From IMG/VR virus record IMGVR_UViG_2909314774_000001: a DNA stretch of 64,000 nucleotides. One strand, written 5' to 3'. The DNA is from a virus. Taxonomy: Duplodnaviria; Heunggongvirae; Uroviricota; Caudoviricetes. The notes under the pieces are model-generated. The model made no database searches and was not told the DNA's origin. It was given only the letters and a program-made list of their open reading frames with translations. Every line of letters begins with the position of its first letter. The stretch's first letter is position 1. Shown here in pieces: positions 5,935-56,897 of this stretch. The position numbers were made by a program, and so were the translations under genes.

Positions 5935-6046
5935 ATAGACACAACCCCTTCTGACTTTAACAAACCCTAAAACAATTTGTTTTCTACCTTTTGTTGATTG
6001 AGATAATAAGCCACATAAGAAAACAAATTGTTTCGGAGTGGTTGAA

Positions 6047-7707: not shown

Positions 7708-8148
7708 GTGTAATTAGCTTAATCAATCAGTTGATAATGGCGGTCACAATTTGATTCTTTTCTATAAGAACCCGTTGATCGCCACTACTCCCATCCCATA
7801 CCAGCAATCACATCATTAAATATCAATAGGTTAACGTTGTTTATACCAATAAGAAAACAACTAAATAACAGATCAACGAAACATCAACGCTTTCTCCCGA
7901 TTTGGTCTAAAAAATTGACGTTATCACACATCACTTCTTATACCCGTAATTCTACGCAGCAGATAGCGCCACAGCGTCCAAATTTCACCACAAACGACTC
8001 AACACACTACCAACAAAAACACACGCTCAAAATCGCTCCCGTTGCGTTACACAACCATATAAACAACTTATTTTCAGGCATAACAAAACAACTAAATAAC
8101 ACATATGACATTCCCCAAAACAACCAACCTCTTTATGGCAGGCTACCG

Positions 8149-8215
8149 AAAAGACCCACCTCTTCTCCCCAGGCTACCGGACAACCAACCTAACTTTCAC
8201 AGGCAATCCGAAAAC
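8149..8215 (+). repeat. three imperfect direct repeats CAGGCTACCG-N-CCAACCT inside a G-depleted tract
   Basis: repeat units starting near 8149, 8171, 8201; the same family recurs at 12135-12210. Confidence 0.5.
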
Positions 8216-8930: not shown

Positions 8931-9300
8931 TAGCGAGAGGGAGAGTTGCGGCTACCCACCTGTAATGTGCGGGAAGAAGAGAGGCGCTCACGTGCAGGCG
9001 GACTAACTTACCGTTGGACTCCCTCTGAATGCCCAACTACAGCGTAATTGTGCCAGAGAGTCAGCGGGTCACAATCGATTTCAGTAGGTTTTCGGGGAGA
9101 AGAAAATTCTGCCCACCAGCCCTGCGGCGCGCGTAGGGCAGAATATCGTAAATACTGGTTCCGTGTCGTTCCCGGATACTCACTACCCAGCCTGGCTTTC
9201 CCGACATAAAATCCTTTTCCGCCTTTGTCTTATTGCGATAATAACACCAACAAGTAAACAACATGTTTAGACGTTATATAAACGAAGTGAGGATGAAGAG

Positions 9301-9547: not shown

Positions 9548-9657
9548 GTCGCTATTAACCTCCGGGCAGCGCAGCACCGTAACGATATACTTTGTGGCCG
9601 TTTTCTTACTGGTATTGTTTACGCAATTCAGAAAACAACATGTTTAAGGATTGCGTT

Positions 9658-9987: not shown

Positions 9988-10141
9988 CCCCAACCAAAGC
10001 CAGCATTGCTGGCTTAACTTAATCTGTAGCCGCAGGGAAGAACCTGCATATCGCTCATGCGCCTGATCAATATGCTTTGTAGCCGCTTTCTTACTGGTAT
10101 TATTTACGCCATTGAGAAAACAAGTTGTTTACGGAGTTGTG

Positions 10142-10995: not shown

Positions 10996-11020
10996 AACCG
11001 CGCCATTTTCTTATGCCCGA
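10996..11020 (+). terminator. intrinsic terminator (ATGGCGCG taaac CGCGCCAT + TTTC)
   Basis: perfect 8-bp GC stem. Confidence 0.65.
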
Positions 11021-11092
11021 TAACAATTTGTTTTCTGCCTTATCTGATTTGTGAAAATGATTTCACTGAAGCAACTTAATAAGGAAACCATC

Positions 11093-11467: not shown

Positions 11468-11796
11468 ATATGGGCGATTTCAAGAAACGCCTGAAGGAAA
11501 GAGTCGAGATGGTCAGAAAGCAAAACGCCTCTTCTGTCATCAGATACGCAAGGCAGTTTAGTCGCAACAACAAATCAGTTGAGGAAAAGATCCTTAGCGT
11601 AATCGGGCGATAATTATTAAGGCCACCAGCATTGGTGGTCTTAAATGACTTTTAATAACCGAAGGTTAGTTTGAAACCTGGCTATCAACTTCCAGAACCT
11701 TTCTTGTGTATTCAGCCTGTATTAACTTCTTTTATGCCTTATCTACACTGCGATAATTACATCAACAAGAAAACAACATGTTTACGCAGTGAGGAT

Positions 11797-12084: not shown

Positions 12085-12134
12085 AGAGTAAGGCCACCAA
12101 TGCTGGTGGCCTTAAATGACCATCCTGTTTCCCG

Positions 12135-12210
12135 CAGGCTAAAACACCAACCTCTTACCTCCAGGCAACCGACAAACCCACCTGTTCCCGTCCGGCTACC
12201 GCAACTTTCC
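12135..12210 (+). repeat. second cluster of CAGGCTA/CCGGCTACCG-type direct repeats in a C-rich, G-poor segment
   Basis: gcaggctaaaacaccaacct / ccaggcaaccgacaaacccacct / ccggctaccgcaactttcc. Confidence 0.45.
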
Positions 12211-12287
12211 ACTTTGACGCCTTATTCGTACAACGATAATTAACACCAACAAGAAAACAATTTGTTATTTACGATAAGGAATTAATC

Positions 12288-13386: not shown

Positions 13387-13617
13387 TTATTTATGTAAAC
13401 TGATTTCAAATCCCATTTCTACAAACGCTTTTAACATTAAAAATATATCAGCGTCATTCACGTCTGCTTTTTTTCGCTCCTGGTCGCTCAATAAGTCAAT
13501 TTTGCGCGTCGTTTCATCTATAAGCTCGACTGCGCGCCCAGCGTAACCAGCGATCCCAGCGATGCGATTAACAAAATATTCATTGCGCACGTTAACGCCA
13601 GCGATAAGAATAAACAT
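13387..13617 (-). CDS. hypothetical small protein (76 aa)
   Basis: ORF bracketed by two copies of hairpin GCGCCCATAGTGGGCGC (13363-13380 and 13634-13650). Confidence 0.4.
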   Translation of the reverse strand: MFILIAGVNVRNEYFVNRIAGIAGYAGRAVELIDETTRKIDLLSDQERKKADVNDADIFLMLKAFVEMGFEISLHK

Positions 13618-17770: not shown

Positions 17771-17852
17771 AAACCTCTTTCCTTAGTGCCTTTTGTATGT
17801 TATTTGGCTATTATAATAAGTAAGTGATTACTTAGTGGATTGTAGCAATAAA

Positions 17853-18533
17853 ATGGATGTAAAAATCACGATTTTGCAGGTTGATGTTGCCAACCTTCGC
17901 CCGAATACCTGGAACACCAATTCGGTTGGTGCGCAGAATTTTGAAAAACTGAAAGGTTCTATCGAAAAATTGGGCTTTTTTAAGCCAATTTTGGCTCGTG
18001 AACTTGAAGATGGATTTTTTGAAATCCTCGGCGGCGAACATCGCTGGCGTGCTGCTATTGAGCAAGGAATTTCAACGGTTCCGGTGCTTTCTGTGGGCAA
18101 AATTAGCGATGTCGTAGCTAAACAGATGTCACTGGTGGACAACGAGCGATACGGTGAAGACGACCAAATCGCATTGCAACGCTTCATTGAAGAAATTCAG
18201 TCAGAACTTGACTATCAACTGTCTGAAATCGCCCCGTATGACGACGAAATCTCGATGGTTTTAGCAAAAGAGGCGGCAATCGACCTTGAAGCACTGGAGG
18301 CGTTGTCTCGTGGTAGTGATGAGCCTGTCGATACCGACAAACGAGAGAAAACCGAACGTGTGGGGGCGGAACATCAGACCATGCGCTTCAAAGTAACTTT
18401 CGATGCGTCAGATCGTGTTGCAGAAACCATAAAAAACATCATCAAAGAGCAGGCTATTAACACCGGTAATGAAATGGAGAACGCTGGTGAGGCTCTGGTG
18501 TGGCTGGTCGACTACTACAAGGAGCGTATGTAA
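17853..18533 (+). CDS. ParB/Srx-fold (ParB N-terminal-like) protein 1
   Basis: GGEHRWRAA motif resembling the ParB GERRWRA box; start at MDVKITIL preferred over the track start. Confidence 0.6.
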   Translation: MDVKITILQVDVANLRPNTWNTNSVGAQNFEKLKGSIEKLGFFKPILARELEDGFFEILGGEHRWRAAIEQGISTVPVLSVGKISDVVAKQMSLVDNERYGEDDQIALQRFIEEIQSELDYQLSEIAPYDDEISMVLAKEAAIDLEALEALSRGSDEPVDTDKREKTERVGAEHQTMRFKVTFDASDRVAETIKNIIKEQAINTGNEMENAGEALVWLVDYYKERM

Positions 18534-19201
18534 TGACCAAAAAGTTTGAAATCGTATATCGCGACCCGGCAGATCTTATTCCCTATGAGATGAATGCCAA
18601 AAAGCATGATGAACAGCAGATCCGAGATCTGGCCGCAGCCATTAAAAAGCGCGGATTTGACCAGCCAATTACGGTCGATAAGAACGACGTAATTATTACT
18701 GGCCACGGCCGCCGTGAGGCTGCAATTTTTGCTGGACTTGAGCGCGTGCCGGTTATTGTTCGCGATGATCTGAGTGATGACGAGGTACGTGCAAAGCGCC
18801 TTGAAGATAACCGACTTGCCAGCATTGATTACGATGCAATTAAGCTACAGAAAGAGCTTGAGTCGCTTGTTCTGGACGATATCGAGGTTTTCGGCTTCGA
18901 AGAGCGTGAGTTGAACGTTCTCGTTGGCAGTATGACAGAAGAAATGGACACCGACTCGCTAGTTATCGATCTTGGCGAAGAAACTAAACGACAGAAGGAT
19001 GAACACACCGAGATCAGTCGTGAAGTTGCAGCGGAAGAAGTACGTGTTGTCGACGTATTGGGCTTTAAAACGCTCCCTGCTGGCTCTGCCATTGTTGTTG
19101 GTGATTTGCTTGCCCATATGGAAGAAATGACGGGAGAAAGCGGGGTAGACGCATTTGTGGCATATGCGGAGAAGATCTCTTCCGGGGAGATGGCTGCATG
19201 A
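18533..19201 (+). CDS. ParB/Srx-fold (ParB N-terminal-like) protein 2
   Basis: ITGHGRREAA motif; start overlaps the previous stop (TAATG). Confidence 0.6.
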   Translation: MTKKFEIVYRDPADLIPYEMNAKKHDEQQIRDLAAAIKKRGFDQPITVDKNDVIITGHGRREAAIFAGLERVPVIVRDDLSDDEVRAKRLEDNRLASIDYDAIKLQKELESLVLDDIEVFGFEERELNVLVGSMTEEMDTDSLVIDLGEETKRQKDEHTEISREVAAEEVRVVDVLGFKTLPAGSAIVVGDLLAHMEEMTGESGVDAFVAYAEKISSGEMAA

Positions 19202-19863
19202 GCAAATACATCATCAACGTATCGTTTCAGACACGCGTAAATAAAACCACGCGCACGTTGGAAATCGCTGAGTCGTTCGGGCTTGGCCTGGACGAAAAAG
19301 AGTGGACGCTTTACGACAATCTGGAGCTGGAAGTGAAGCAGGGCGATGTGGTGTACATCACCGGCCAATCCGGTTCCGGCAAATCCGTTGTGCTGCGCGA
19401 GTTGCAACGACAGATGAAGGATGAAGGGCTGTCTGTAGCCTCCATCGATGATTTTACCTTCGATAATGAGGTTAACGTCATCGATCAGTTGGGCAAAACG
19501 ACCAGTGATGCGCTTGGGTTGTTATCTATGGCTGGTCTGAACGATGCATATCTGTTTGTTCGCAAGCCTTCTGAAATGTCAGACGGCCAGAAATATCGTC
19601 TCAAGATTGCCAAACTGATTGAGTCAGGCGCTAAAGTATGGGCTGCTGACGAGTTCGGCGCTGTTCTCGACCGTGTAACCGCTCAGGTTGTGGCGTCTAA
19701 CCTCCAGCGTGCCGCTCGAAAGGTTGGTGCGACGGTAATGGTGGCGACGACTCACGAAGACCTGAAGAACGCGCTGCGCCCTGATATGCAGATCACCAAG
19801 CACTACAAAGAACGCGTGAAGGTGGAATATCACAATGGTAGTCATGATGAGGTCCATTCATGA
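19198..19863 (+). CDS. soluble ABC-type ATPase
   Basis: Walker A GQSGSGKS, signature-like MSDGQ, Walker B VWAADEF, H-loop TTHE; translationally coupled to neighbours. Confidence 0.65.
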   Translation: MSKYIINVSFQTRVNKTTRTLEIAESFGLGLDEKEWTLYDNLELEVKQGDVVYITGQSGSGKSVVLRELQRQMKDEGLSVASIDDFTFDNEVNVIDQLGKTTSDALGLLSMAGLNDAYLFVRKPSEMSDGQKYRLKIAKLIESGAKVWAADEFGAVLDRVTAQVVASNLQRAARKVGATVMVATTHEDLKNALRPDMQITKHYKERVKVEYHNGSHDEVHS

Positions 19864-20750
19864 CGGACATCATCATTAAACGCTACCGCCCTGAAGAGTT
19901 TCCGCGTCATCTGGACTTTCTGGAGCGAATGACTGTTACAAAGGGAACTGTAGAGGACTGGCACGCTCTTAAGTCGCTTCACTACAAAACAGACGGCAAA
20001 CCTTTCGCGCCAACTTACTATCGCTGCGAACTTGATGACCGTCTGGTGGGCGTCGTGGTTATGGCTTACCCGAAACTACTGTTGGCACCTCGCCACCGCA
20101 TGTTTCCTAAGTTGAAACCAACCACTAATACCACCGTGGCTAACCAGTACTGGGGTCGGTACGTGAATAACAACTTTGCGGTGATCAGTCGCTCAGTTGT
20201 GGATACTCAGTATCGTGGCGTAGGCGTCTCTTATCGAATGATTAACCTGGTTAGCAGGATGCATGACCGGCCAATCATTGAGATCCAGTCCTCGATGAGC
20301 AAATACAATCCCTTCGCCATGAAAGCAGGGTTTAAGTTCATCCGCCCTGAGCGACCGAAGAGCTATGAAAGTGCACTGCGTGTATTCCAGCGCCATTTCC
20401 GTTCCGACCCGGGTGATAACGAGGCGATCGTCAAAGAGTTGTTCGCAATGAGCGAGTCTCGTCGTCGCCGTGCACTGCGTGATCTGGTAGCGGACTACCA
20501 CAAGAACAGTTCCCTGGCAAAAGCTGGGCGGAATCGTGGCACGACGATTCAGGACATTGCCGACAGTCTGGTGGACGAGGCCAGCATTGTGAAGCTGCTC
20601 AAGGACATTCACACCCTGAGCTTTACGTCTCCGTTGTATGGTGTGTACCGAAACCCTGACTTTGGTCGTCGGCTGCCTGACACGCTGCCACTGCTGGCAT
20701 TCGACAAACAACCTTTGGATAAACCGTTAGAAATTGCTTTACCGGCATAA
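19860..20750 (+). CDS. GNAT-like acyltransferase-fold protein with C-terminal extension
   Basis: motif-A-like VDTQYRGVGVSYRM and NPFAMKAGFKFI. Confidence 0.45.
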   Translation: MTDIIIKRYRPEEFPRHLDFLERMTVTKGTVEDWHALKSLHYKTDGKPFAPTYYRCELDDRLVGVVVMAYPKLLLAPRHRMFPKLKPTTNTTVANQYWGRYVNNNFAVISRSVVDTQYRGVGVSYRMINLVSRMHDRPIIEIQSSMSKYNPFAMKAGFKFIRPERPKSYESALRVFQRHFRSDPGDNEAIVKELFAMSESRRRRALRDLVADYHKNSSLAKAGRNRGTTIQDIADSLVDEASIVKLLKDIHTLSFTSPLYGVYRNPDFGRRLPDTLPLLAFDKQPLDKPLEIALPA

Positions 20751-20759
20751 GGATTTGCC

Positions 20760-21026
20760 ATGACGTTAACCGATAAACAAAAGGACATCATCAAAACGCT
20801 CAATCTCGGTTATGAGCGAGGTCATCTACTTGACCTGGACGAATTGCTTGAAGTTTTGCCGTACAAGACAACCAAGCAAAGTATCCAGTTCTCAATTCGC
20901 GCTCTGATAAAAAAGGGGCTGGTGGAGAAAGGGCATACGCGCCAACGCAGTGACAATCGCTATCACCGCCGAACTCTTGGGTTAACCACTTTAGGTCGAG
21001 CCAAAGCGAAGTTACTGGTGATGTAA
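20760..21026 (+). CDS. small basic protein, possible winged-helix DNA-binding
   Basis: 88-aa ORF, Lys/Arg-rich C-terminus. Confidence 0.4.
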   Translation: MTLTDKQKDIIKTLNLGYERGHLLDLDELLEVLPYKTTKQSIQFSIRALIKKGLVEKGHTRQRSDNRYHRRTLGLTTLGRAKAKLLVM

Positions 21027-21048
21027 TCGGTCTGGGAGCTTATTTAAA

Positions 21049-21106
21049 GACCTGCTTCTGTATATATAAATAATAAGTAACTTATTAAATATATACAGAA
21101 GCAGGC
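21049..21106. repeat. large near-perfect palindrome (CCTGCTTCTGTATATAT ... ATATATACAGAAGCAGG) with AATAAGTAACTTATT core
   Basis: 17-bp arms are exact reverse complements; a diverged second copy lies at 55941-56000. Confidence 0.8.
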
Positions 21107-21222
21107 TTAATAAGACATGCCCAGACCTAATTAAACACCCCAGAAAACAAGTTGGTTAGCAGATTCAGTAAACAAGTTGTTTTAGAGCGCATGGACGCGC
21201 TCTGTGTGTTTTAGAGGGATCT

Positions 21223-21855
21223 ATGACGGTCGAAAAAGACGAGGTAAAAACTCGCCTGACACCAGCGGAGTGGGCCGAAGCTGAAGCCAAATGGACGTCA
21301 GGCGAATATACACTCTCAAAGCTGGAGGAAGAGTACGGCATTCGTCGTGAAACACTCTCCAGACATTTCAAAAAGCGAGGATTAGAGAAAGGCGCGGACT
21401 CTGTTGGGAAGATGGTTCGTGAGTCTCTTAAATCTGACGCAGAGCTTCGCGCTAAAGCCCGTGCGGAAAAGATAGAAGAACGTCGTACACGTTATGACGG
21501 CTGGGCGTATGCGTTGGGGCAGATGGTGATGGTCGAAGTCACTACGGCCAAACGTGAGGGTAAGCCTTTAGGGGCGATTGAGGATTCTCTCAAGAGCTTA
21601 CAGAGAGCCAGTAATACCCTTGCAAAATGCTTTGAAGTTTCGTCCAAAGCATTGGGCATGGATCATGCGGAAAATGACGAGGAAGAAATTCCGAACCTGG
21701 TATTTGGTGAGCTTACGCCTTCCCAGGTGGCGAAATTACGTCAGGAAGACGACGAGCCTGAAATCATCGATGACGAATTGCTTGAGACGTTGGAAGAAGA
21801 AGCTCTAAGCGAATTTGATGCGACAGATGATGGAAGTGAAGGGGAGGACGAATAA
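21223..21855 (+). CDS. terminase small subunit (putative)
   Basis: position directly upstream of the large terminase, HTH-like N-terminus, acidic C-terminus; two class-A palindromes upstream. Confidence 0.55.
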   Translation: MTVEKDEVKTRLTPAEWAEAEAKWTSGEYTLSKLEEEYGIRRETLSRHFKKRGLEKGADSVGKMVRESLKSDAELRAKARAEKIEERRTRYDGWAYALGQMVMVEVTTAKREGKPLGAIEDSLKSLQRASNTLAKCFEVSSKALGMDHAENDEEEIPNLVFGELTPSQVAKLRQEDDEPEIIDDELLETLEEEALSEFDATDDGSEGEDE

Positions 21856-23111
21856 TGGCAATCCCGTCCTCGCTCAGTCTTGTGCAACTGCATTCTGGAC
21901 AGATGAAAGTCTTCCAGTCTCCGCATCGATTTAAAGTTGTTTGTGCTGGTCGACGCTGGGGAAAATCCCGGTTGTCGATCTCCACTATTATTCGTGCGGC
22001 GGCAAAGGAAAAAAAGCAAAGAGTCTGGTATGTCGCTCCTACTTACCAGATGGCTCGCCAGATTTTGTGGGACGATCTACAGGAAGTTCTGCCTCGTAAG
22101 TGGGTTAGGAAAAAGAACGACACCACGATGACAATCGTGTTGAAGAACGGTTCGGAGATCGCCCTCAAAGGTGCTGATAAGCCTGACACTCTGCGCGGCG
22201 TAGCGTTGCATTTTGTAGTGCTTGATGAATTTCAGGATATGAAGGCTGACACCTGGTACAAGGTGTTACGACCTACTCTTTCATCGACACGCGGCGGTGC
22301 ACTGATCATTGGTACGCCAAAAGGCTTCTCGGAATTTCACAAACTGTGGACTATAGGCCAGAACGTAGAGCTGCAAAGAAAGGGACAGTGGAAGAGCTGG
22401 CAGTTTGTAACTGCCGATTCTCCGTTTGTACCTACGGCGGAAATTGAAGCTGCTAAGAACGATATGGACCCGAAATCGTTCGCTCAGGAGTACCTGGCGA
22501 GCTTTGAGAACATGTCCGGGCGCGTTTACTACCCGTTCGATCGTAACGTGCATGTAAAACCGCTTCAGTTCAACCCTCGGTTGCCTATATGGGTAGGGCA
22601 GGACTTCAACATTGACCCGATGTCTTCAGTAATTTTGCAACCTCAGCCAAATGGTGAGCTATGGGCAATTGATGAATTGGTGCTCTTTTCCTCTAACACG
22701 GCAGAGGTTTGTGATGAGCTTGAGAGACGCTTCTGGCGCTGGAAATCACAGATAACGGTATTTCCAGATCCGGCAGGTGCTTATCGCCAACATGCTCGCG
22801 GGGAGTCTGACGTCGACATATTCAAAGAGAAGGGATTCTTACGTGTCGATTATTCGAAAAAGCACCCGCCAATTGCGGATCGTGTTAATGCTGTTAACCG
22901 AATGCTGATGACCGCATCTGGAGATATCCGGCTGTATATCGATCCGAAGTGCAAGCATTTGATTGATTCACTGGAAAAAGTCATCTACAAGCCTGGAACA
23001 CGAGATATGGATAAGACAGGTGGCATTGAGCATAGTGCAGACGCATTGGGCTATCCAGTACATCGTAGGTATCCAGTCAAAAACCGTGTTATTCTTGGTG
23101 GTTCTCGATAG
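21855..23111 (+). CDS. terminase large subunit
   Basis: Walker A CAGRRWGKS, Walker B VVLDEFQD, nuclease-domain-like C-terminal half. Confidence 0.85.
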   Translation: MAIPSSLSLVQLHSGQMKVFQSPHRFKVVCAGRRWGKSRLSISTIIRAAAKEKKQRVWYVAPTYQMARQILWDDLQEVLPRKWVRKKNDTTMTIVLKNGSEIALKGADKPDTLRGVALHFVVLDEFQDMKADTWYKVLRPTLSSTRGGALIIGTPKGFSEFHKLWTIGQNVELQRKGQWKSWQFVTADSPFVPTAEIEAAKNDMDPKSFAQEYLASFENMSGRVYYPFDRNVHVKPLQFNPRLPIWVGQDFNIDPMSSVILQPQPNGELWAIDELVLFSSNTAEVCDELERRFWRWKSQITVFPDPAGAYRQHARGESDVDIFKEKGFLRVDYSKKHPPIADRVNAVNRMLMTASGDIRLYIDPKCKHLIDSLEKVIYKPGTRDMDKTGGIEHSADALGYPVHRRYPVKNRVILGGSR

Positions 23112-23137: not shown

Positions 23138-24712
23138 ATGGAATTGAACGACAAACAAATTAAGGATCTGGTGGCGCGACGCCACCCGGAATACGAAAAG
23201 AAAAAAGAACATTGGGACTTCCTCGCCAGCACTTACGCTGGCGGGCGTGGTTGGTTTACAGACAATATCTTTCGTTACTTTAAAGAGGGAGATCAGGAGT
23301 TTAAGGAGCGAGTTGAACGTGCTTATCGCTTCAACCACACTCGTGAGGTGGTAAACCTCATCAACAAATATCTCTTTAAAGAAGACATTCATAGAAATAT
23401 CGAAGAGGCACCAGAGCAGATCCGCAATTTCTGGAAACGTGCGACTCGCCAGAATGCCTCTATTGACTCATTTATGGCCGCTATTGATTTGCAGTCGTCT
23501 ATTTACGGTCGCATATGGGTTGTTGTCGATAGCACGATGAGTGGTGATGTTGAGTCAGTAGCTGACGAGAAAAAGAAAGATGCTCGCGCCTACGCCTACT
23601 GGATTTCACCTCAGCAAATGCTGGATGTGGCATGGGACGACGACGGGAATATGTTGTGGGCGTTAATTGTGGAAGTCGCTCGTGATGACGCAGATCCTTT
23701 TACTTCTACAGGTCAGGAATACCAACGTTATCGTCTGTGGACACAAAACGAGTGGTATCTGTTCCGTGAGGAAGTGAAGAAGGGCGCTGGTGGAGCAGGT
23801 CGCCGTCAGGCAAAAGTTATTTTAGAGGATAGCGGTGAGCATAATCTCGGCGTAGTTCCTGTGTTTCCTGTTGATTGTATTGGAGAAAGTGAATCACCGT
23901 ATTTCAGCCCATCGTTGATCGATGATATCGCTTATCTTGATCGTGCGGTTGCAAACTATCTGTCAAACCTTGATGCCATTATTCAGGATCAGACATTTAG
24001 CCAGTTGGCTATACCGGTACAGTCGCTTTTACCTGGTGATGAAAACCACACTAAAGTGCTTGAAATGGGCACAAAGCGAGTCTTCACCTACGATTCTGAA
24101 GGTGGAAACCAGCCGTTTTATCTGTCACCAGACCCGAAACAAGCTCAGATGATCATCACTACGATTAAGACGGTGATTAACGAAATCTACCATTCAGTTG
24201 GTGTAGCTGGTGAGCGAACGAAGCAGGACAACGCACAGGGAATCGATAATTCATCTGGTGCCGCAAAAATGTATGACTTCCAGCGTGTAAATAGCTTGCT
24301 TGTCACAAAAGCAGAGCGTCTGGAAAGGGCTGAACGCCAAATCATGCTACTGGTTGCGAAATGGATGGGGGTAGATCTGGACGAAGACCACTCTTTAATT
24401 GCATATCCAGAAAGTTTCGATATTCGTGGCCTTACTGATGAATTTTCTGTTGCCGAGAAACTGTCATTACTTCAGGCACCGGACTCTGTACGTCGTCACC
24501 AGATGGAAATGCTTATTGAGAAGATTTTCCCGAACATTACTGAGGCGATGAAAAAGGAATTTGATAAAGATCTCTTGAATTTTCCTCCAAAAAATGATCT
24601 AAATACCCTTGAAAATAAGTCAGTACTTACTTATGATCGTGGTGCAGCCCAAGAAAGCGGGCAAGATCAACCCCGAGGGAATGGGGACTCATCTACTCAA
24701 GAGAACGAGTGA
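23138..24712 (+). CDS. portal protein (putative)
   Basis: 524-aa ORF directly after the large terminase. Confidence 0.65.
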   Translation: MELNDKQIKDLVARRHPEYEKKKEHWDFLASTYAGGRGWFTDNIFRYFKEGDQEFKERVERAYRFNHTREVVNLINKYLFKEDIHRNIEEAPEQIRNFWKRATRQNASIDSFMAAIDLQSSIYGRIWVVVDSTMSGDVESVADEKKKDARAYAYWISPQQMLDVAWDDDGNMLWALIVEVARDDADPFTSTGQEYQRYRLWTQNEWYLFREEVKKGAGGAGRRQAKVILEDSGEHNLGVVPVFPVDCIGESESPYFSPSLIDDIAYLDRAVANYLSNLDAIIQDQTFSQLAIPVQSLLPGDENHTKVLEMGTKRVFTYDSEGGNQPFYLSPDPKQAQMIITTIKTVINEIYHSVGVAGERTKQDNAQGIDNSSGAAKMYDFQRVNSLLVTKAERLERAERQIMLLVAKWMGVDLDEDHSLIAYPESFDIRGLTDEFSVAEKLSLLQAPDSVRRHQMEMLIEKIFPNITEAMKKEFDKDLLNFPPKNDLNTLENKSVLTYDRGAAQESGQDQPRGNGDSSTQENE

Positions 24713-26522: not shown

Positions 26523-26554
26523 TCAGTGAAGTAGATAAGTAATTATCTATGTTA

Positions 26555-31652: not shown

Positions 31653-34600
31653 ATGTCACAAAACGTAGAGTTTATCCTGTCGCTGGAAGACAAACAGTTT
31701 ACAGCGTCAATCGATCGTGCGGGGAAACTGCTTACTCGATTTGGTGAGCAGGTAACAAAGCCTGCTCAAAAAATCCAAACCTTTGAACGCTCTTTGGGTT
31801 CGGTCGCCCGTATCATTGGCGTTCTGGAAAGCAAGCTCGATTCTACGGCAGATAAACTACAGGATGTAGCTGCCGGTTTTGAGCTTGCTTCAGATGCTAC
31901 GCGTAAAATGCGTGGCAACATCACCAGCCTCAATTCTGGTCTTAAAGCCCTGATTGAGCGCGTCGATACGACAACTTCTTCAGTAGATAAACTCACCGCG
32001 TCATTACGTAAAGTGCAATCAGAGCTAAATGATTTCTCTGATTGGGCGACCTATGCAAGCAAAAGCGCAAGCCGCTTTGGTACGGAGGTCAAAGAAGCCT
32101 CTGCGTCCGTGAGTGGCATGAATACGCGCCTTAATACCACGACGAAGCGACTCAGTAATTGGGGTGTCACAACGAGTCAGGCTGCCGAGGGACTGAAAAA
32201 GGTTCGTGAGCAGATGGACGAAGTTATCGGACGTCAGCAACTGATTAGCAAGCCGGTACGCGTTCGTACATCTGGAAGTGGCGATGGTGGTAGCGGGCGG
32301 CGTAGCGGCGCTTCTGGCCATAGCGGTAAAAGTAACGAAGGAGGTATGTTCTCTGGCCTTCGTGGCAACATTTTCCTGCTTGGCGAGATCGGAGATGCAG
32401 CCAGAACGGTTACTGACATCATGTTTGGATGGCAGAAGCCTATTGTTGAAGCTGCGGCCGAAATGGAACGTATGCGGGTGATGCTTCGTGGGTTGAATAA
32501 GGAGAAGTCTAACCCTGGCCAGGCTGCCGCCGATGACATGAAGTACATCGTAGACATGGCTCAAAATGCGCCGTTCGCGATGCAGGCGTTAACAGATTCC
32601 TTCGTGAAGTTTCGTTCTGCTGGCTTAGATCCAACCGATGGCTCTCTGAAGGCGCTGGTGGACTCCGTTGCTCGTTTTGGTGGTGATAGTGAGCTGTTGA
32701 AACGTGCGGCTGTGGCCGTTCAGCAGATGTCCGGTAAGGGCGTCGTGTCAATGGAAGAGCTACGTCAGCAATTAGGTGAAGCCGTTCCTAACGCGATGCA
32801 GGCAATGGCAGACGCCGCAGGCATCACTATGGGGGAACTGACTAAAGCCGTTGCCAGCGGTACGGTTGAGGCAAAACAGGCGTTGTCTCTGATGTTTGTT
32901 GGTCTGCGTGCGGAGAATGAGAACGCAGCGAAAGACATGATGCAAACCTACACAGGTGCGCTGGCGCAACTTCAGACGTCATTCACGTTATTTGCTGATC
33001 GGGTTGGTCAGGCCGGATATCTGGATTCTCTATCGAAGGGGATGAAAGAACTGGCTTCAATCATGAATAGCGCCGAAGGGATTTCGTTTGCCAATTCTTT
33101 AGGTTCGGGGTTAACAACGGCAATCGATGGGTTGCGTCAGCTTGCTCAATGGTTAGCAAAGAACCAAGAGCTGGTAATTAATCTCGGTAAGGTCGTGGCC
33201 GCGATGGTTGCGTTCAAACTGATGCGAGCAGGGATCATGGGGGTAGTTGGCGCTGGGAGCCAGATGGTTAGCACCTTTGCCACGATGGCGACCGCCATAC
33301 AGACTCCATTTAACCTCGGCGCTACAGCAGTAACTCGATTCAATCGTGCGGCACGTATGGGGCTGGCTCCGATCCCCTCTCTTATTTTCGCCATCCGTGG
33401 GGCGATTACGGGGCTTAAAGGCGCTTTTGCTGGATTAACGGCGTTCATTGCAGCAAACCCTATAGGGGCAGCATTTACAGTTGCCACTGTAGCTGTTGCT
33501 GGCCTAATCACGTACATGACCATGCTCCGCAGCGAAACTTCAAAGGTCGTTGACGAGATTAGGAAAATACCAGAAGCGATGACAGCGGCCAAACGTGCAC
33601 AAATGGCCGACCGCGCAGAAAAGCTCGAAAAGCAGATTCTTGCTGATCAACGAGCATTAAAAACTGGTGAGGGTGTTAATTACGTATCTAACTCTGCCGG
33701 TGTTATTACTCACAAAGAGTCGAAGGCTGACATCGAAGCACGCCTGAAAAAAAATCAGGAGGAGTATCAAAAGATAACCGGCACGATAGCTCTTGGTGAC
33801 GGCGCTGTAGCAAAGCGTTTGGCTAAAGAGGCTGCCGAATCTCAGATTGAGAAAATTCGAGCGGAAAACCAGATTTTCGCGGCAACATTCGTGAAAGCCC
33901 GGCAAGAGGCTCTGGATAAGATCCAGAAAATCAATGATGACGGTTCACTTTCAGATGACGAAAAGAACAAGCTATTGGCACCGTTACGTGAAACGGTAAA
34001 CAAAAGCTATCTGGAGCCTGCGCAAAAACTGGTTGATTCACTTTCTTCTCGTAAGAATGCGACCGAGAAGCAAATTGCGACTCTTAATGATCAGCTTGAA
34101 AAAGCCAAAAAGGATGGAAATACCGAGCAGATCCAGAAACTGCAAGGCAGTATTCGTGGTTATCAGGAGCATTTGGAAGCCGTTGCTCAGGAGCTGACTC
34201 AGGCAGAGTTCGAGAGAGATAACGCGGCCAAAACTGGTAAGGGCGTAATGTCAAACCAGGGGACTGTTCTTGGGTTAGGTACAACTGATAAAGCTGCTCA
34301 GAAGGCGCTGGCGCAATATATGCGAAACCAGATGGATTCTGCGACTTATCAACGTACTTTGCCTGACGGCACTCCGATGATGGACTTCGAAGGTAAGCCG
34401 ATTATTGGGCCTAAACAACTCAAGACGCAGCTTAATTTGCAGAAAGCATCCAGCGCCAGCTCTCTGGAGAAAATGAGCGATGAAGAGCGTGCCGCAGCCA
34501 TTGCTGCACTGACTAAAGCTCGTGAACAGGATGCCGCAGCCGCCGAGAAAGCAGCCCAACGATCAGCTAACGCCTCGCAGCGTGCGGCCAAGAAGGAACA

Positions 34601-44276: not shown

Positions 44277-44369
44277 TGGTGGAAAAAAAATTTTATATCG
44301 GTAAAAATAGGTAAGTATTTACTTAATGGCGGGCAAGGATAGCCCGCCAAATCAAGGAGCATATTCAAC

Positions 44370-52828: not shown

Positions 52829-53146
52829 GTATTCCTCCTGATGGCCGTGATGTAGGAAGGCCATCAATCTCCTCTGTTCAAACTGAGTTTTCGACTCAAA
52901 AATTACTTTAAAAGGCTATAGCCCATTACGTGTGCATTATCAAATTGTGTACGGCATATCACCGTACTTGTAATATAGAGGTCATTGTTACTTTTTTCAA
53001 CAGACAAATACAAGCTATGATTGCCAATTGTTAATCACAACCTACCATTTAACCTTTACACCGCAGCCGTAGGCATTTAGGCTATATCACATATAAGAAA
53101 ACAAGTTGTTTCAGACGATAATTATATACGCAAAGGGAACTCTCCA

Positions 53147-53815
53147 ATGACCAAGATCTTTGTGGTTGGCGGCACAAAGGGCGGGCCTGGCAAATCCACC
53201 GTTGCCCAGCAAATTGCCGTTTGCCTGAAAGTCAAAAAGAAGAAGAAGGTTTATATTACCGATATAGATATTCAGCGCACGACAACGAGCTGGTGTGAAG
53301 ACCGTCGACAGAACGAAGACCTTGAGCTGATTCCTTTTGCATACGTTCAGGATGACATCATTAAGCACCTAAAATCGCTTCAGGGTAGAGCTGAGTTTGT
53401 AGTGGTAGATGCCGGTGGCTTTGACTCCGAAATTCAGCGACAAGCGATGCTGATGGCTGACGTTATCATTATCCCGCTTCGTCCTAAGCGTCGTGATTTG
53501 AAATCTCTGCGTGACATTGATCCTATTATCGACAATGTTCGTAATGTAAACGATAAAGTGAAGGTCCGCGCGGTCATGAACCAGTGCCCGGCTTTGCCAT
53601 CACAAGTGTCTCGCATTCTGGCGGCTAAAGAGATTGTCGAGACGTTTGGCATCGAGTCTGCGCCAGTCAATCTATATAACCGCAACGTCTATGATGATGC
53701 GGAAGAGTCTGGTCGTTCTATCTTTGAAATGACCGGTAGCGAGCGCGACAAAAAGGCGGAAGCCGAGTTTGAAGAATTTGTAGATTATCTGTTGAGTCTG
53801 GAGGAAGAAGAATAA
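53147..53815 (+). CDS. ParA-type partition ATPase (small type Ib, ParF-like)
   Basis: deviant Walker A GGTKGGPGKST; 222 aa; class-A palindrome 53096-53112 upstream. Confidence 0.8.
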   Translation: MTKIFVVGGTKGGPGKSTVAQQIAVCLKVKKKKKVYITDIDIQRTTTSWCEDRRQNEDLELIPFAYVQDDIIKHLKSLQGRAEFVVVDAGGFDSEIQRQAMLMADVIIIPLRPKRRDLKSLRDIDPIIDNVRNVNDKVKVRAVMNQCPALPSQVSRILAAKEIVETFGIESAPVNLYNRNVYDDAEESGRSIFEMTGSERDKKAEAEFEEFVDYLLSLEEEE

Positions 53816-54225: not shown

Positions 54226-55932
54226 ATGGAATCGATAGAAGTATTTTTAAAAAATTTTTTGGACTCAGATCATCGGGTTGCTGTCATAAAAGGAAATTGG
54301 GGAGTAGGTAAAACGCATTATTGGAATAGCTTTTATACTAAACATTCTAAAAAATTAGATTTTAATGCATATTCATATGTTTCTTTGTTTGGAATAAATT
54401 CTATTGGAGACATTAAAAAAGCTCTTTATCATTGTGCCACACCAATTAATGAAAAGAAATATAAAGAACTGATTTTATCTGAAACGGATCGAACTATGAT
54501 TCGTTATAGAAATGGGTTTTGGGGATGGTTGAAATACAACTCCTTGTCAAAATTTTTAATACATTTTGGAAAGAACGATTTTTTTGGGTTCAAAACTGAT
54601 AATCTGCTGTCATCTCTTGAGTATAAATTTGTTAATAATTATTTGGTTTGCATTGATGATATTGAACGAAAAGGTAGTGCGCTAGAAATTAAAGAGATTA
54701 TGGGGGTAATTGATGAGTTGGCAAGAAGAAAAAATTGCAAGGTTGTTCTAATATTAAATGAAGATAACTTACATGAAGAAACTGCACAACAACAGTTTTT
54801 AGAGTATAGAGAAAAAATAATTGATGTGGAAATAAAATACGATCCCACGCCTGAGAAAAACTTAAGAAAAGTTTTTTATGAGACTGACCCTGATTTTCTT
54901 TTGTTAAAAAACCTAGTAAATGATTTAAACATCAAAAACATTAGAATATTAAATAAAATAAAATCATCTCTAGTTATATTTAGAGATGTGCTAAAGTTAG
55001 CAGAGGATAAGGTTAGAGAAAGTTTTATTAATAGATTGGTCTTATTTTCAGTGGTTTACTATTTTGGTGTTCCTAGCGTTGATTATGCTTCATTTAAGGA
55101 GTCAATCAAAAATATACATGCATTCGACTATATGTTAGATGATAAAGATGAAAAGGAAGAAGTTAACTCTGTATATTCATTTGTTAATAGCCTTGATGTT
55201 ATTTATGAACGAGCAGAAAGTGCTTTCGATGATGATATAGATTTTTACCTTAAGAACGGTTATGTTTCTTCTGAAAGCAATATTCTAAATATAATAAAAG
55301 AAAAAAATGAACAATATAGAGATAATAGGGTTTTATGTGAGGTTTATAAAATTTGGGATGTTTTTAGAAACTCTTTTAAAGATAATGAATCAGAGTTTAT
55401 TTTTCAAATTGAGCGCGTAATTAACGATAGTCTGTTGCGTATACCAATTGGACAGTTCGTAGGTTTAATAAATGTCCTAATTAAATTGGATAGAGATTGT
55501 AATAATATTATAGAGGCATATGCAGATGCTTTTGTTAATAAAGAAAATGCGTATGCTACATTTAATTCTTTGCGAGTAGAGATCTTCGGAAATGAAGAAT
55601 TAGGTTTCAGAATTGAAAAAAAATTGAAAGATAGAAATCCAGATGACTATAACTTAGATAAAATTATAAAAAAAATAGCTGGTGGAAGATTTAACCATAG
55701 TGATGTGAATATTCTTAACAGTTTTTCTAAAGATGATTACGTAAACTGGATATTATCCTGTGATCAGGATGCTTTGAATTTAGTAGAAGAGACTATGCTC
55801 AAGTTCAAGGGTATGCAACACCCGACAGACGAACAGAAGAGCATCACTGATAAAGCAATAGAAGCTTTGGAGGAAGTTGCTTCAAAATCAACACTTAATA
55901 AGCTGCGTGTTAATAAAATACTCAATCATTAA
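54226..55932 (+). CDS. KAP-family P-loop NTPase
   Basis: Walker A GNWGVGKTHYW (the G.WG.GK(S/T) form typical of KAP NTPases), Walker B LVCIDDIER; strongly AT-rich gene. Confidence 0.75.
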   Translation: MESIEVFLKNFLDSDHRVAVIKGNWGVGKTHYWNSFYTKHSKKLDFNAYSYVSLFGINSIGDIKKALYHCATPINEKKYKELILSETDRTMIRYRNGFWGWLKYNSLSKFLIHFGKNDFFGFKTDNLLSSLEYKFVNNYLVCIDDIERKGSALEIKEIMGVIDELARRKNCKVVLILNEDNLHEETAQQQFLEYREKIIDVEIKYDPTPEKNLRKVFYETDPDFLLLKNLVNDLNIKNIRILNKIKSSLVIFRDVLKLAEDKVRESFINRLVLFSVVYYFGVPSVDYASFKESIKNIHAFDYMLDDKDEKEEVNSVYSFVNSLDVIYERAESAFDDDIDFYLKNGYVSSESNILNIIKEKNEQYRDNRVLCEVYKIWDVFRNSFKDNESEFIFQIERVINDSLLRIPIGQFVGLINVLIKLDRDCNNIIEAYADAFVNKENAYATFNSLRVEIFGNEELGFRIEKKLKDRNPDDYNLDKIIKKIAGGRFNHSDVNILNSFSKDDYVNWILSCDQDALNLVEETMLKFKGMQHPTDEQKSITDKAIEALEEVASKSTLNKLRVNKILNH

Positions 55933-55940
55933 TAGATTAT

Positions 55941-56000
55941 GACCTGCTTCCGTATGTATTTAATAAGTTACTTATTATTTGTATATACAGAAGCAGGTCT
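55941..56000. repeat. second copy of the large palindrome (GACCTGCTTCcGTATgTA ... AATAAGTTACTTATT ... TATATACAGAAGCAGGTC)
   Basis: shares arms and core with 21049-21106; followed by TTTTAAAG. Confidence 0.75.
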
Positions 56001-56104
56001 TTTAAAGACACCCACCAGAACAAGTCCCTTCCGTTTCCACTTCCAAAAACTGCCACCAGTCGCTATCATCCGCTCATTGTGATAAGTAAGTAACTACCTA
56101 CCAG

Positions 56105-56854
56105 GTGAGCCACATGAGCCAAATCTTTTTCGATACCATCGACAACGACCAGTACGACTTCATGACAGAGTGGAATACCGCTGTTATGGACAAGTGGGTT
56201 GCTGAAAACATTGGTTTGTCGCGCTGCAAAGACGAGGCTGAACTGTTTGAGACGAAGTGGTTTGATTACCGCGATATGCATCCTCTCATGGCCACCTGTC
56301 TGTTTACGGAGGCATACAAACGTCAGTACTCAAATATCATGCTGACGCACGGTCGTGAACACTTTGAAACAGCTCCGTTCACCACCGGGTTAAAACGCTT
56401 GCCTTATCAGGAGTTGTCGACTGCTAATAAAACGTCGCTATGGAAAGCACGCCAGTTTGCGGATCGCTATTGCTGCTCATACGACTACTTTATCTCCACT
56501 GTTCTTTCCGCAGCTGCACGACGTCTGTGGGACAAGCTGCCTCGCCCACAGCATTTGTGGCAGCCAGAACTGATTGAGATATTTGAAGAGAAATTAGCCA
56601 GACGCGCAACAACCCGTCTGGATGACTCTCTGGTTAGCTTTAAGCATATGGGAGACATGCAGTTCAACCCGATTCAGGAAAGCTATTTTGAGTGGATTCT
56701 GGAGCGTTTGCGCACCATCCCTCGCAGCAAGCGCATACGCGCAATTTTCTCCGCTATCTGGCTAATGGAAATCGTTCCAGAGCGCCTTATTTCCGACCAC
56801 TTTCCAGAAGAACTGGAAGAAGCACGGCGGTTTATTGATCCCCTATCTAATTAA
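56105..56854 (+). CDS. hypothetical protein (possible replication accessory or loader)
   Basis: 249-aa ORF directly upstream of the helicase gene. Confidence 0.45.
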   Translation: MSHMSQIFFDTIDNDQYDFMTEWNTAVMDKWVAENIGLSRCKDEAELFETKWFDYRDMHPLMATCLFTEAYKRQYSNIMLTHGREHFETAPFTTGLKRLPYQELSTANKTSLWKARQFADRYCCSYDYFISTVLSAAARRLWDKLPRPQHLWQPELIEIFEEKLARRATTRLDDSLVSFKHMGDMQFNPIQESYFEWILERLRTIPRSKRIRAIFSAIWLMEIVPERLISDHFPEELEEARRFIDPLSN

Positions 56855-56897
56855 CTAATACTAGAAAACAATTTGTTTAAAAAACAAAGGAAAGCAC

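Follow-up and report, generated by a model that had tools for sequence, protein, structure and literature searches.

Conserved palindromes at three module borders of SSU5-type phage-plasmids as candidate transcription terminators or insulators

In the stretch of DNA analyzed here (64,000 nt, hereafter the window), which is an SSU5-like phage-plasmid, two large palindromes 35 kb apart stand on either side of the block that carries the structural genes. What kind of signal do they represent? An initial sequence-only reading offered three options, namely strong bidirectional terminators, packaging or cleavage signals, and recombination sites delimiting an exchangeable module. We favor, with a probability of about one half, the reading that the palindromes act as Rho-independent terminator or insulator hairpins in the coding-strand transcript at three module borders. 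As signals they would be of an ordinary type, only conserved to an unusual degree, and would most likely stop read-through between blocks.

Anatomy and gene context of the two window copies

The features that frame the two palindromes, termed A and B, are as follows.
20760..21026, + strand: 88-aa gene (phrog_900, no Pfam hit), last of the ParB_N/ABC-ATPase-like operon upstream of A
21017..21139, no strand assigned: weaker extended dyad around A, with 51-nt arms that are 71% complementary
21031-21038: flanking motif TCTGGGAG, part of the extended dyad left of A
21051..21105, + strand: palindrome A, 55 nt, with perfect 17-bp arms and a GC-rich outer base (CCTGC/GCAGG)
21120-21127: flanking motif CCCAGACC, part of the extended dyad right of A
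21223-21855, + strand: terS-like DNA-binding gene (phrog_867), first gene of the structural block beyond A
21855-23111, + strand: large terminase gene, in the structural block next to the terS-like gene
54226..55932, + strand: KAP-family P-loop NTPase gene, variable cargo in a hotspot left of B
55943..55997, + strand: palindrome B, 55 nt, whose outer stem has one C·A mismatch and one G·U pair on the + strand
55998..56006, + strand: T-tract TCTTTTAAA, directly 3′ of palindrome B, read as a putative terminator U-tract
56114-56854, + strand: phrog_2500 protein gene, leading the replication block after B
56898-58238, + strand: DnaB-like helicase gene, in the replication block after B

The palindrome first reported at 21049-21106 was found with its exact 17-bp reverse-complement arms and could be narrowed to 21051-21105. 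The arms of site A (CCTGCTTCTGTATATAT / ATATATACAGAAGCAGG), perfect over 17 bp, enclose a 21-nt centre of A/T letters only that holds an inner palindrome, TAATAAGT-A-ACTTATTA. Site A lies 24 nt past the stop codon of the 88-aa gene and 117 nt ahead of the start codon of the terS-like gene. Directly upstream are two ParB_N genes (proteins encoded at 17835-19201), two ABC-type ATPase-like genes and the 88-aa gene (fold unknown), and a second hairpin, of canonical type with a T-run, follows downstream at 21183-21214. Site B, with arms CCTGCTTCCGTATGTAT / (TG)TATATACAGAAGCAGG, lies 10 nt past the KAP-NTPase stop codon and 116 nt ahead of the first gene of the replication block. Gene calls on either side thus bear out the contexts originally given for the two copies, one before the terminase genes and the other after the KAP gene and before the replication module. 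The element at 55941-56000 had been described as a diverged copy of A; it is an inverted copy, with 3 mismatches to A as reverse complement versus 20 as direct and with 94% complementarity over 63 nt in the inverted alignment.

Chance does not account for either palindrome. Allowing up to 3 mismatches, the 16-mer arm is found four times, once for each arm, where 0.42 occurrences are expected; no shuffle out of 100 gave as many as four, and a perfect inverted repeat of at least 17 bp with a spacer of at most 30 is expected about 1e-4 times per 64 kb. Both sites fold on the + strand into stable stem-loops with a G+C-rich base (A, -35.3 kcal/mol, z = -8.6; B, -28.3 kcal/mol, z = -6.9), four of the outer five stem pairs (CCTGC/GCAGG) being G-C. 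A simple terminator scan called neither A nor B, and consensus promoter and terminator scans around both sites and across 44-64 kb returned counts no higher than shuffles. A search of Rfam 15 gave only sub-threshold miRNA-precursor matches, which reflect generic long hairpins, and no match above the gathering score.

Fixed positions, packaging and exchange among SSU5-type relatives

Searching relatives for the element at module borders placed it at the same borders in both complete close relatives that were examined, SSU5 and PhiR41_1. Each of these genomes carries exactly three such palindromes rather than the two originally described, in fixed syntenic positions: A precedes the terminase genes, B precedes the DnaB/primase replication block, and C follows a DNA methylase gene. 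Judging by PhiR41_1, C should fall ~11 kb before the window start and hence outside the window. The blocks upstream of the three sites are the ParB-like/ATPase operon (A), the parA operon plus cargo (B; in many relatives the parA operon lies directly upstream) and a nucleotide-metabolism/methylase block (C). Across the window, SSU5 and PhiR41_1, wherever the upstream gene is co-directional, the palindrome begins 10–27 nt past that gene's stop codon; B of PhiR41_1 is the exception, its upstream gene being on the opposite strand. The leader from palindrome end to next start codon measures 108–118 nt at every copy. Because 10–27 nt after a stop codon leaves no room for a promoter, we read the hairpins as 3′ elements of the upstream block and not as leaders. 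SSU5 and PhiR41_1 also have the flanking motifs TCTGG (left) and CCAGA (right) at all three sites; in the window, the left TCTGG of B is missing and a cargo gene stands in its place.

This placement holds across a wide set of loci. Every one of the 119 placeable loci retrieved by pattern falls on A, B or C and has collinear flanks, and single arms were never found alone in SSU5 or PhiR41_1. Among loci retrieved through neighboring proteins alone, A is conserved in place in 66 of 84 (terminase proteins) and B is present in all 78 that were scored (downstream protein). Complete E. coli genomes contain the element at 392 places in 255 of 5426 genomes, with 1–3 per genome, all on plasmids and none on a chromosome, and related sequence occurs in Yersinia (62 plasmid records) as well as on Salmonella, Klebsiella, Enterobacter and Citrobacter plasmids. 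A search of genome contigs with the terS-like protein returned only 4 close relatives, and nearly all matches in a scan of viral contigs with a K. oxytoca-type 14-mer degenerate arm were chance ones. SSU5-type relatives include Yersinia pestis plasmids.

The position of A, 117 nt upstream of the terS-like gene, invites the view that A is a pac or cos signal recognized or cut by terminase, and the GenBank records of SSU5 and Cyrano do start inside A, at the start of its right arm. We consider this very unlikely. Instead of one recognition locus per genome, as for a pac or cos signal, there are three equal copies, and B and C, 30–46 kb from the terminase genes, are conserved equally to A. Contigs of unrelated assemblies end inside B (L343, L356) and one ends ~50 nt from A (L145); breaks at repeated inverted repeats are assembler behavior, and because other assemblies' contigs break inside B, the start of the SSU5 record inside A is probably an assembly artefact as well. 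Furthermore, in the virome contigs checked (~100–112 kb), the ends are tens of kb away from the terminase/site-A locus, other phage records of the group start elsewhere, and our literature search found nothing on SSU5 termini. Apart from the two record starts inside A, little therefore speaks for the packaging or cleavage signal that had been suggested.

A second view treats the palindromes as crossover sites at which a site-specific recombinase would invert, excise or swap the 35-kb structural block, as might be supposed from the inverted orientation of the two window copies, from the tyrosine integrase that the element encodes (the integrase gene is found in relatives) and from two marks of exchange around the sites. 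The identity breakpoints of mosaic relatives fall within ~0–400 nt of A or B, and B bounds a cargo hotspot: the homology of relatives ends at window positions 55936-55942, the left edge of B, which has at least 18 different flanks on its left versus one conserved flank on its right, B being the fixed right edge of a hypervariable cargo-gene region. The recombinase view is nonetheless most improbable and already largely refuted by junction searches: none of the 247 E. coli plasmid records that matched has the A × B inversion junction, and none of the 463 plasmid records that matched has the deletion junction. No recombinant isomers were found among relatives, the 119 placeable loci have collinear flanks, and the mosaic breakpoints lie near the palindromes, not at them. 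Tyrosine-recombinase core sites have overlap regions of 6–8 bp; instead of two short repeats around a 2–8 bp crossover, the palindromes have an AT-rich spacer of at least 21 nt (21–29 nt, and up to 125 nt in Pectobacterium).

The orientation change itself points to a smaller event. In the close relatives PhiR41_1 and L340, B has the orientation of A, and window B is the exact reverse complement of their B save for 2–4 mismatches. Comparison of these sites shows the inversion to be local and recent, a flip of the 55-bp element and not of the whole block. A central G/C difference between SSU5 and Klebsiella at site A was considered as a second flip and proved on comparison to be a plain substitution. 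Within lineages, the three copies appear to be homogenized among themselves by gene conversion, and because their neutral centre is homogenized too, gene conversion would explain the concerted evolution without a trans-acting factor. It would keep the three copies alike and could also flip a copy, as in window B, and the copies, as conserved islands, would tend to mark places where mosaic relatives switch ancestry. Of the idea that the palindromes delimit an exchangeable module, the site-specific form thus fails on junctions and flanks, and a weaker form stands, resting on gene conversion, breakpoints near A and B, and B as a hotspot edge.

Strand signals, arm pairing and the function of the hairpins

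The T content of the 9 nt 3′ of the stem was compared between strands. At B it averages 5.8 on the + strand versus 4.0 on the - strand (26 variants) and at C 5.6 versus 3.2, whereas at A it is 3.1 on the + strand (CTTAATAAG in the window) and 3.8 on the - strand, with no convincing U-tract on either. An intrinsic terminator would carry a U-rich tract of ~7–9 nt directly 3′ of its stem on the transcribed strand; B and C agree with this and A does not. The B tract is kept in nearly all lineages while its sequence drifts (TCTTTTTCT, TCTTTGATA, TTTTTTAAA, TCTGTTTTA and others).

Pairing was assessed in 144 loci retrieved only through neighboring proteins, whose arms fall into 20 haplotypes. The pair count covers 19 of these, without one degenerate haplotype that aligned badly, and 96.6% of their stem cells are paired. 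Over all 20 haplotypes, the non-Watson-Crick cells on the + strand comprise 24 G·U, 5 A·C and 7 others, an excess of G·U to which C-to-T mutation bias on the non-template strand may have contributed. At arm position 9 the pairs seen are C-G, U·G and U-A, and arm position 5 runs from C-G through U·G to U-A (L419); uncompensated arm mutations also occur (CCTGCATC, CCTGCGTC, GAAAGCAGG). Formal covariation over the 19 haplotypes did not rise above shuffle controls because the arms vary too little. Whole-hairpin energy favors the + strand at B only, not at A or C, so that the argument for one strand depends on G·U outnumbering A·C, a pattern that mutation bias could produce as well.

Taken together, these features suggest how the signal might work. 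RNA polymerase leaving an upstream block would transcribe both arms of the palindrome, which would then form a ~24-bp hairpin on a GC-rich base; where this hairpin adjoins a U-tract, as at B and C, the transcript would be released. The next block would then be expressed only from its own regulated promoter, putatively placed in the ~115-nt leader. Site A, with its poor U-tract, is probably a weak or pause-type copy, for which the canonical hairpin and T-run at 21183-21214 may serve as backup. Consistent with such a scheme, the hairpins stand in sense orientation at the 3′ ends of transcription units, and the free spacing of the arms fits pairing between nucleic acids, which tolerates such variation as a rigid protein dimer would not. 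A functional replacement also seems to have occurred in K. oxytoca pCAV1099-111, where ordinary short terminators accompany degenerate palindromes. Counting against it, typical terminators have much shorter and less AT-rich stems, and the arm sequence is conserved beyond what pairing alone needs. Sites that do resemble ordinary terminators, short GC-rich hairpins with T-tails, also exist in this genome (e.g., 11617-11643 and 12089-12115). Of the three options first proposed, a terminator is the best supported, although its bidirectional form is not: the T-tracts of B and C lie on the + strand, the mismatches are mostly G·U on that strand, and A lacks a good U-tract.

The arms themselves raise a different possibility. 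Their outer 8–9 nt (CCTGCTTCY) hardly vary between the three sites or between lineages of E. coli, Salmonella, Yersinia and Klebsiella, in contrast to the drifting flanks and centre, and in Pectobacterium a single lineage-specific, different arm (CCGYGCTCYCATARTAT) is common to all three sites. We hypothesized that the palindromes could be duplex DNA sites for a dedicated phage-plasmid protein, serving as dispersed operators or centromere-like sites in control or segregation; candidate binders are the two ParB_N proteins, the 88-aa protein beside A or a repressor. N15 and RK2 provide known examples of dispersed palindromic ParB-type sites. The ParB_N, ABC-type ATPase-like and 88-aa genes directly upstream of A, the parA operon directly upstream of B in many relatives, and the TCTGG/CCAGA motifs at all site types agree with this view, yet we judge it fairly unlikely. 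Gene conversion suffices for the concerted evolution, as the homogenized neutral centre indicates, and the arms lie 21–29 nt apart here and 64–125 nt apart in Pectobacterium (>100 nt at A and B). The arms (14–25 nt) are longer than usual half-sites and are never single in SSU5 or PhiR41_1, and a G·U mismatch bias on one strand is meaningless for duplex binding. In addition, the palindromes are degenerate in K. oxytoca pCAV1099-111, with a strong T-run at A and ordinary short GC hairpins with T-tails beside the remnants of B and C, and K. oxytoca plasmids of this kind keep the ParB-like, ATPase, 88-aa and replication genes. For a ParB/parS- or KorB-type system, the ParB_N genes and the sequence-conserved arms are in place, whereas the variable spacing and the K. 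oxytoca degeneration speak against it.

A bolder version, which we rate as unlikely, is that all three palindromes could be sites of one dedicated factor, either an RNA-hairpin termination/antitermination switch or a ParB-type DNA clamp, that would switch the three blocks together. Were it true, such a factor would open and close the replication, early/accessory and virion blocks at the change between plasmid and lytic states, and the invariant outer arm and its Pectobacterium replacement would reflect co-evolution with the factor and not gene conversion alone.

The hairpins might also act in the RNA without being mainly terminators, as RNA processing or stability elements (RNase III substrates cutting polycistronic transcripts), or might be leader attenuators overridden by a phage factor. 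RNase III needs a duplex of roughly 20 bp, a length that the near-perfect ~24-bp duplexes exceed; A keeps its hairpin without a U-tract, the arms are conserved beyond the needs of pairing, and the copies sit at the entry of three long one-directional blocks, as coordinated control would have it. Decidedly unlikely as we judge this to be, it leaves the conserved T-tracts at B and C unnecessary, and for the attenuator version no candidate antiterminator was identified.

Finally, an AT-only centre between GC-capped inverted repeats recalls an easily melted origin, B adjoins the DnaB-like helicase and primase genes, and in-situ flipping suggests that hairpins or cruciforms do form in the DNA. A role as lytic replication origins or cruciform entry sites is nevertheless highly improbable: GC skew stays positive and does not switch at any copy, the palindromes have neither initiator nor iterons associated with them, the Rep gene and its region lie elsewhere, and the K. 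oxytoca plasmids with degenerate palindromes keep their replication genes. An origin would also leave the T-tract and the fixed stop-codon spacing unexplained.

Significance and comparison with known systems

SSU5-type phage-plasmids are common in Enterobacterales and carry defence and resistance cargo. The searchable literature yielded nothing on their transcription architecture and nothing relevant on the arm sequence or on palindromes, inverted repeats or termini of SSU5, pHCM2 or pMT1. Three fixed hairpin signals would give a simple map of the transcription units in these elements, would explain why the cargo hotspot ends exactly at B, and would offer three small targets for studying how the elements keep lytic genes silent in the plasmid state. 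They also carry a warning for annotators, as assemblies break at these palindromes and the arbitrary start of the SSU5 reference probably has its origin there. If they are plain terminators, the result is useful annotation and not new biology.

Two further classes of repeat were considered and rejected. A protelomerase target (telRL-type, ~56 bp) disagrees with three copies per genome and with the circular records of PhiR41_1, pCAV1099-111 and Drgb1, and a MITE or REP/ERIC-like mobile repeat disagrees with an element that is confined to these plasmids, keeps to the same three positions and occurs on no E. coli chromosome.

Among known systems, intrinsic terminators share with the palindromes a GC-rich-base hairpin right after a stop codon and, after B and C, a coding-strand T-tract, and ordinary short terminators replace the palindromes in one distant lineage. 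Unlike them, the stem here is ~24 bp and mostly A/T where 5–14 GC-rich pairs are usual, sequence as well as structure is common to three sites and many genomes, site A has no U-tract, and more than 100 nt separate the arms in some lineages. The RNase III processing hairpins between genes of the early and late transcripts of phage T7 are likewise long, intergenic hairpins with an internal loop in long co-directional phage units; they share shape and not sequence, however, are more numerous and have no conserved T-tracts, and cleavage at the palindromes is putative.

ParB-type sites (N15 SopB centromere repeats, RK2 KorB operators) are also few, identical, scattered palindromes near promoters in elements with ParB-family genes, but they are compact (13–16 bp, no spacer), whereas the arms here measure 14–25 nt around a spacer of 21–125 nt and show a mismatch strand bias. 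The CIRs of phiC31 and the stoperators of Cluster A mycobacteriophages are genome-specific, short intergenic repeats that block transcription between temperate-phage modules; those are 12–17 bp repressor sites in tens of copies, in contrast to three 55-bp copies with hairpin potential.

Integron attC sites are imperfect palindromes of ~55–140 bp with conserved outer arms and a variable-length centre, and they lie right behind a cargo-gene stop codon; B indeed bounds a hotspot. An attC identity was rejected, as the core sites (RYYYAAC/GTTRRRY) and cassette arrays are absent here, the neighbors of A and C are invariant, and the searches for recombination products gave none. Lastly, the hairpin-loop inversions familiar from short inverted repeats between chloroplast genes are in-situ reversals between close relatives; they are a mutational behavior and not a function, and such a reversal would account for the inversion of window B.

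Large palindromes at three block borders

At 98–99% identity to Escherichia phages CMS-2020a, Cyrano and PhiR41_1, and ~80% to Salmonella phage SSU5, the window is an SSU5-type phage-plasmid. Direct reading of both sites bore out the large palindromes, with their sequences, that a sequence-only reading had described before the terminase genes (A) and before the replication module (B):

21051-21105, palindrome A, perfect 17-bp arms CCTGCTTCTGTATATAT / ATATATACAGAAGCAGG
55943-55997, palindrome B, clearly the same element as A

The 21-base centre of A is A/T-only and contains an inner palindrome, TAATAAGT-A-ACTTATTA. B had been taken for a diverged copy of A; in ungapped comparison, however, the two differ by 3 mismatches as reverse complements versus 20 in direct orientation, and a repeat finder lists the two as inverted repeats of 63 nt with 94% complementarity, so that B is A turned round. 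The arm 16-mer, allowing ≤3 mismatches, occurs four times in the window (the four arms only) versus 0.42 expected, a number reached by 0 of 100 shuffles, and a perfect inverted repeat of A's size is expected ~1e-4 times per window; a chance origin of the palindromes is excluded. Folding energies are -28 to -35 kcal/mol for either strand of A and B, far better than for shuffles (z -6.7 to -8.6).

Both copies first described are present, but relatives carry three. The complete circular genome of PhiR41_1 contains the arm motif as three pairs only:

13435-13487, palindrome C, after the DNA methylase gene
45582-45636, palindrome A
75115-75169, palindrome B

The same three copies are found in SSU5 (78304-78360, 103263-18 and 33458-33513), and by collinearity with PhiR41_1, C should lie ~11 kb before the window start. 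A pattern scan of viral contigs recovered at least 120 stretches with the element; the 119 placeable by their flanks were assigned to A, B or C, with flanks collinear in 119/119. When loci were retrieved by neighbouring proteins, an approach that does not presuppose the palindrome, it was present in 66 of 84 loci obtained through terminase proteins alone (those lacking it were truncated or had a large-terminase identity of at most ~90%) and in all 78 scored loci obtained with the phrog_2500 protein. The same element thus recurs at equivalent module borders of related phages, a check suggested with the sequence-only reading. Among 5426 complete E. coli genomes, the palindrome region was found in 255, on plasmids in every case and never on a chromosome, and related sequence occurs on Yersinia, Salmonella, Enterobacter, Citrobacter, Klebsiella and Kluyvera plasmids. 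The searchable literature yielded no description of the element.

Genes for two ParB_N-domain proteins, two ABC-type ATPase-like proteins and an 88-aa protein lie upstream of A, and those for a terS-like DNA-binding protein, large terminase and portal protein lie downstream; B is preceded by a KAP-family NTPase gene and followed by genes for the phrog_2500 protein, a DnaB-like helicase and primase. The operon directly upstream of A (17835-21026; paralogous ParB_N-domain proteins of 232 and 233 aa, ATPase-like proteins of 221 and 296 aa, and the 88-aa product, which has no Pfam match) is conserved in all lineages examined and is distinct from the small ParA gene (53147-53815).

Record starts, recombination and cargo

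The SSU5 record ends in ...CTTATTA and starts with AATATATACGG..., where the right arm of A begins, and the Cyrano record starts within one base of this point, also inside A, a possible hint of a physical packaging end. The same element is nevertheless also present at B and C, contigs of unrelated assemblies end inside B (loci L343 and L356) or ~50 nt from A (L145), and the terminase/site-A locus lies far from the ends in the ~100-112 kb virome contigs checked. A simpler reading is that the assembly broke at a repeated inverted repeat, giving the SSU5 start, and that the Cyrano start was presumably copied when its record was oriented like SSU5; the palindromes appear to break assemblies and probably fixed an arbitrary reference-genome start.

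The palindromes sit at module borders, and B also bounds a cargo hotspot. Left of B, at least 18 unrelated flanks were seen, the KAP NTPase gene of the window among them, so that this side is hypervariable; the right side is constant. In many relatives B directly follows the parA operon. The hotspot is the gap between this operon and B (54226-55932 in the window; equivalents in loci L004-L123 and L340-L419), with cargo such as the KAP NTPase (window), a DUF2971 gene (SSU5) and a HEPN-domain gene (K. oxytoca). The KAP gene interior contains a cluster of AT-rich matches in a promoter-like scan. The proposal of recombination sites delimiting an exchangeable module therefore holds for position, but not for crossover by a recombinase, which was rejected: none of 247 matching E. 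coli plasmid records contains a synthetic inversion junction built from the reversed terS side, the palindrome and the replication side, none of 463 matching plasmid records contains a synthetic deletion junction, and mosaic breakpoints lie near the palindromes, not at them. Mosaic relatives are 98-100% identical up to some 200-400 nt right of A and ~88% identical beyond, and at B their ancestry changes within 0-400 nt.

The B of the window is the reverse complement of the common B type (2 mismatches) with an unchanged right flank; the 55-bp element may have been turned in place or converted from an oppositely aligned copy. On the coding strand, the flip converts the usual U·G pair to a C·A mismatch. 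The flip is local to this B, and few of the 59 unique upstream sequences at this site have a flipped form; an inverted pair on either side of the structural block is therefore not a deep genome feature.

Flanks, neighbouring repeats and arm pairing

Conserved features are the 14 outermost nt of the arms (CCTGCTTCYGTATA) and the overall length, 52-57 nt; A/T-richness of the centre is constant, whereas its sequence varies and is palindromic in some copies but not all. Copies with a co-directional upstream gene start 10-27 nt past its stop codon in every case, 108-118 nt separate the end of each copy from the next start codon, and all three site types are flanked, at somewhat variable distance, by TCTGG(G)AG (left) and C(C)CAGAC (right). 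Immediately 3' of B and C, the coding strand carries a T-rich tract (including TCTTTTAAA, TCTTTTTCT and TTTTTTAAA at B, mean 5.8 T in 9 nt; CTGTTTTGT and CTTTTTAAG at C, mean 5.6), whose T-richness is kept despite between-lineage drift of its sequence. The 3' side of A is only CTTAATAAG or TTCTGAATA (mean 3.1 T in 9 nt).

Other repeats and small elements in the window
21183-21214: canonical hairpin TAGAGCGC-ATGGAC-GCGCTCTG then TGTGTTTTAG, directly before the terS-like gene ribosome-binding site
56041-56069: weak sigma-70-like promoter in the leader after B (TTCCAA, 17 nt, TATCAT; 8/12 matches, below scan threshold)
5956-6037, 9232-9278, 9610-9650, 10095-10135, 11016-11058, 11747-11793, 12241-12277, 21143-21184 (two copies), 53075-53121, 56852-56888: palindromic motif (A)GAAAACAA-N-TTGTTT
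17811-17834, 24610-24633, 26527-26550, 44302-44325, 56077-56100, 59511-59534, 62869-62892: small palindrome ATAAGTAAGT-NN-TTACTTAT
8118-8213 (three copies), 12141-12205 (two copies): tandem 30-31-nt repeats AACCAACCTCTT-N8-CAGGCTACCG-AAAA, in leaders of small genes
11617-11643, 12089-12115: near-identical short GC-rich hairpins TAAGGCCACCA-NNNN-TGGTGGCCTTA then AATGAC, 470 nt apart
44965-45499, 46446-47673: internal repeats of the tail-fibre region

The hairpin at 21183-21214 resembles a terminator or attenuator in the late-operon leader; SSU5 and locus L193 keep it with both stem sides changed (AGCGC/GCGCT to GGCGC/GCGCC), and SSU5 also keeps both hexamers of the promoter-like site (TTCCAA ... 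TATGAT). The TTGTTT motif recurs in many intergenic leaders, twice between A and terS and also upstream of parA and the DnaB-like gene, and is probably a global-regulator binding site or part of a phage-specific promoter. Copies of the second family are mostly found immediately ahead of start codons, at operon starts or in intergenic gaps, including one in the leader after B; its half-site ATAAGT is also the inner core of the large palindromes. The iteron-like tandem arrays may serve as sites for partition, replication control or a regulator. The GC-rich hairpins belong to a 39-nt segment that is duplicated, and resemble ordinary terminators that would serve small early genes. The tail-fibre repeats comprise degenerate, 21-nt-phased ones rich in Ala/Ser/Glu codons and a 79-nt segment in three copies.

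Arm variation was assessed in 144 protein-anchored loci (20 arm haplotypes). Pairing on the + strand was seen in 96.6% of stem cells, counted on 19 haplotypes with one degenerate, badly aligned haplotype left out; non-Watson-Crick cells in all 20 comprised 24 G·U, 5 A·C and 7 others. Arm position 9 occurs as C-G, U·G and U-A, and position 5 forms the series C-G to U·G to U-A. Selection for pairing in a + strand transcript would give this pattern, with the caution that part of the G·U excess may stem from C-to-T bias on the non-template strand. A formal covariation score for the 19 haplotypes was not above shuffles because variation is low, and Klebsiella-type A sites include uncompensated changes in a single arm.

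Distant lineages and function

The palindromes of K. oxytoca pCAV1099-111 have degenerated: A retains a bulged hairpin with a strong T-run, and B and C are reduced to arm remnants beside ordinary short GC hairpins with T-tails. Pectobacterium plasmid Drgb1 (L337-L339) carries a different arm, CCGYGCTCYCATARTAT / ATAYTATGGGAGCRCGG, common to all three sites, with the arms separated by 64-125 nt. Its site B arms (region 47301-47435 of the record) enclose ~105 nt with a strong Shine-Dalgarno and a 6-codon mini-ORF (ATG ATC CTT AAT TTG TTT TAG), and at a fourth place, after a porphyrin-biosynthesis-like gene, a lone orphan arm (65262-65276) precedes an ordinary terminator-like hairpin. One lineage-specific arm at all three Drgb1 sites indicates that the copies evolve in concert. 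Because the unconstrained centre is also homogenised within lineages (AAATAATAAGTAACTT at A and B in the E. coli type, AAATACTAAGTKACTT at both in the SSU5 type), gene conversion between copies is sufficient and a trans-acting factor, though possible, is not required. The free arm spacing argues for nucleic-acid pairing and against a rigid protein dimer.

Outer arm sequence conserved beyond the needs of pairing, together with the absence of a U-tract at A, fits poorly with a terminator, and a sequence-specific reader of the palindromes (protein or RNA-binding factor) is thus possible. Overall, A, B and C fit coding-strand terminator or insulator hairpins at three block borders: they closely follow stop codons, their stem is GC-capped, T-tracts are conserved at B and C, wobble pairs are biased to one strand, and loop length may vary, while in a distant lineage ordinary terminators take their place. 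Of the strong bidirectional terminators originally proposed, termination is favoured by position, stem and tracts at B and C, but bidirectionality gives way to a coding-strand bias.
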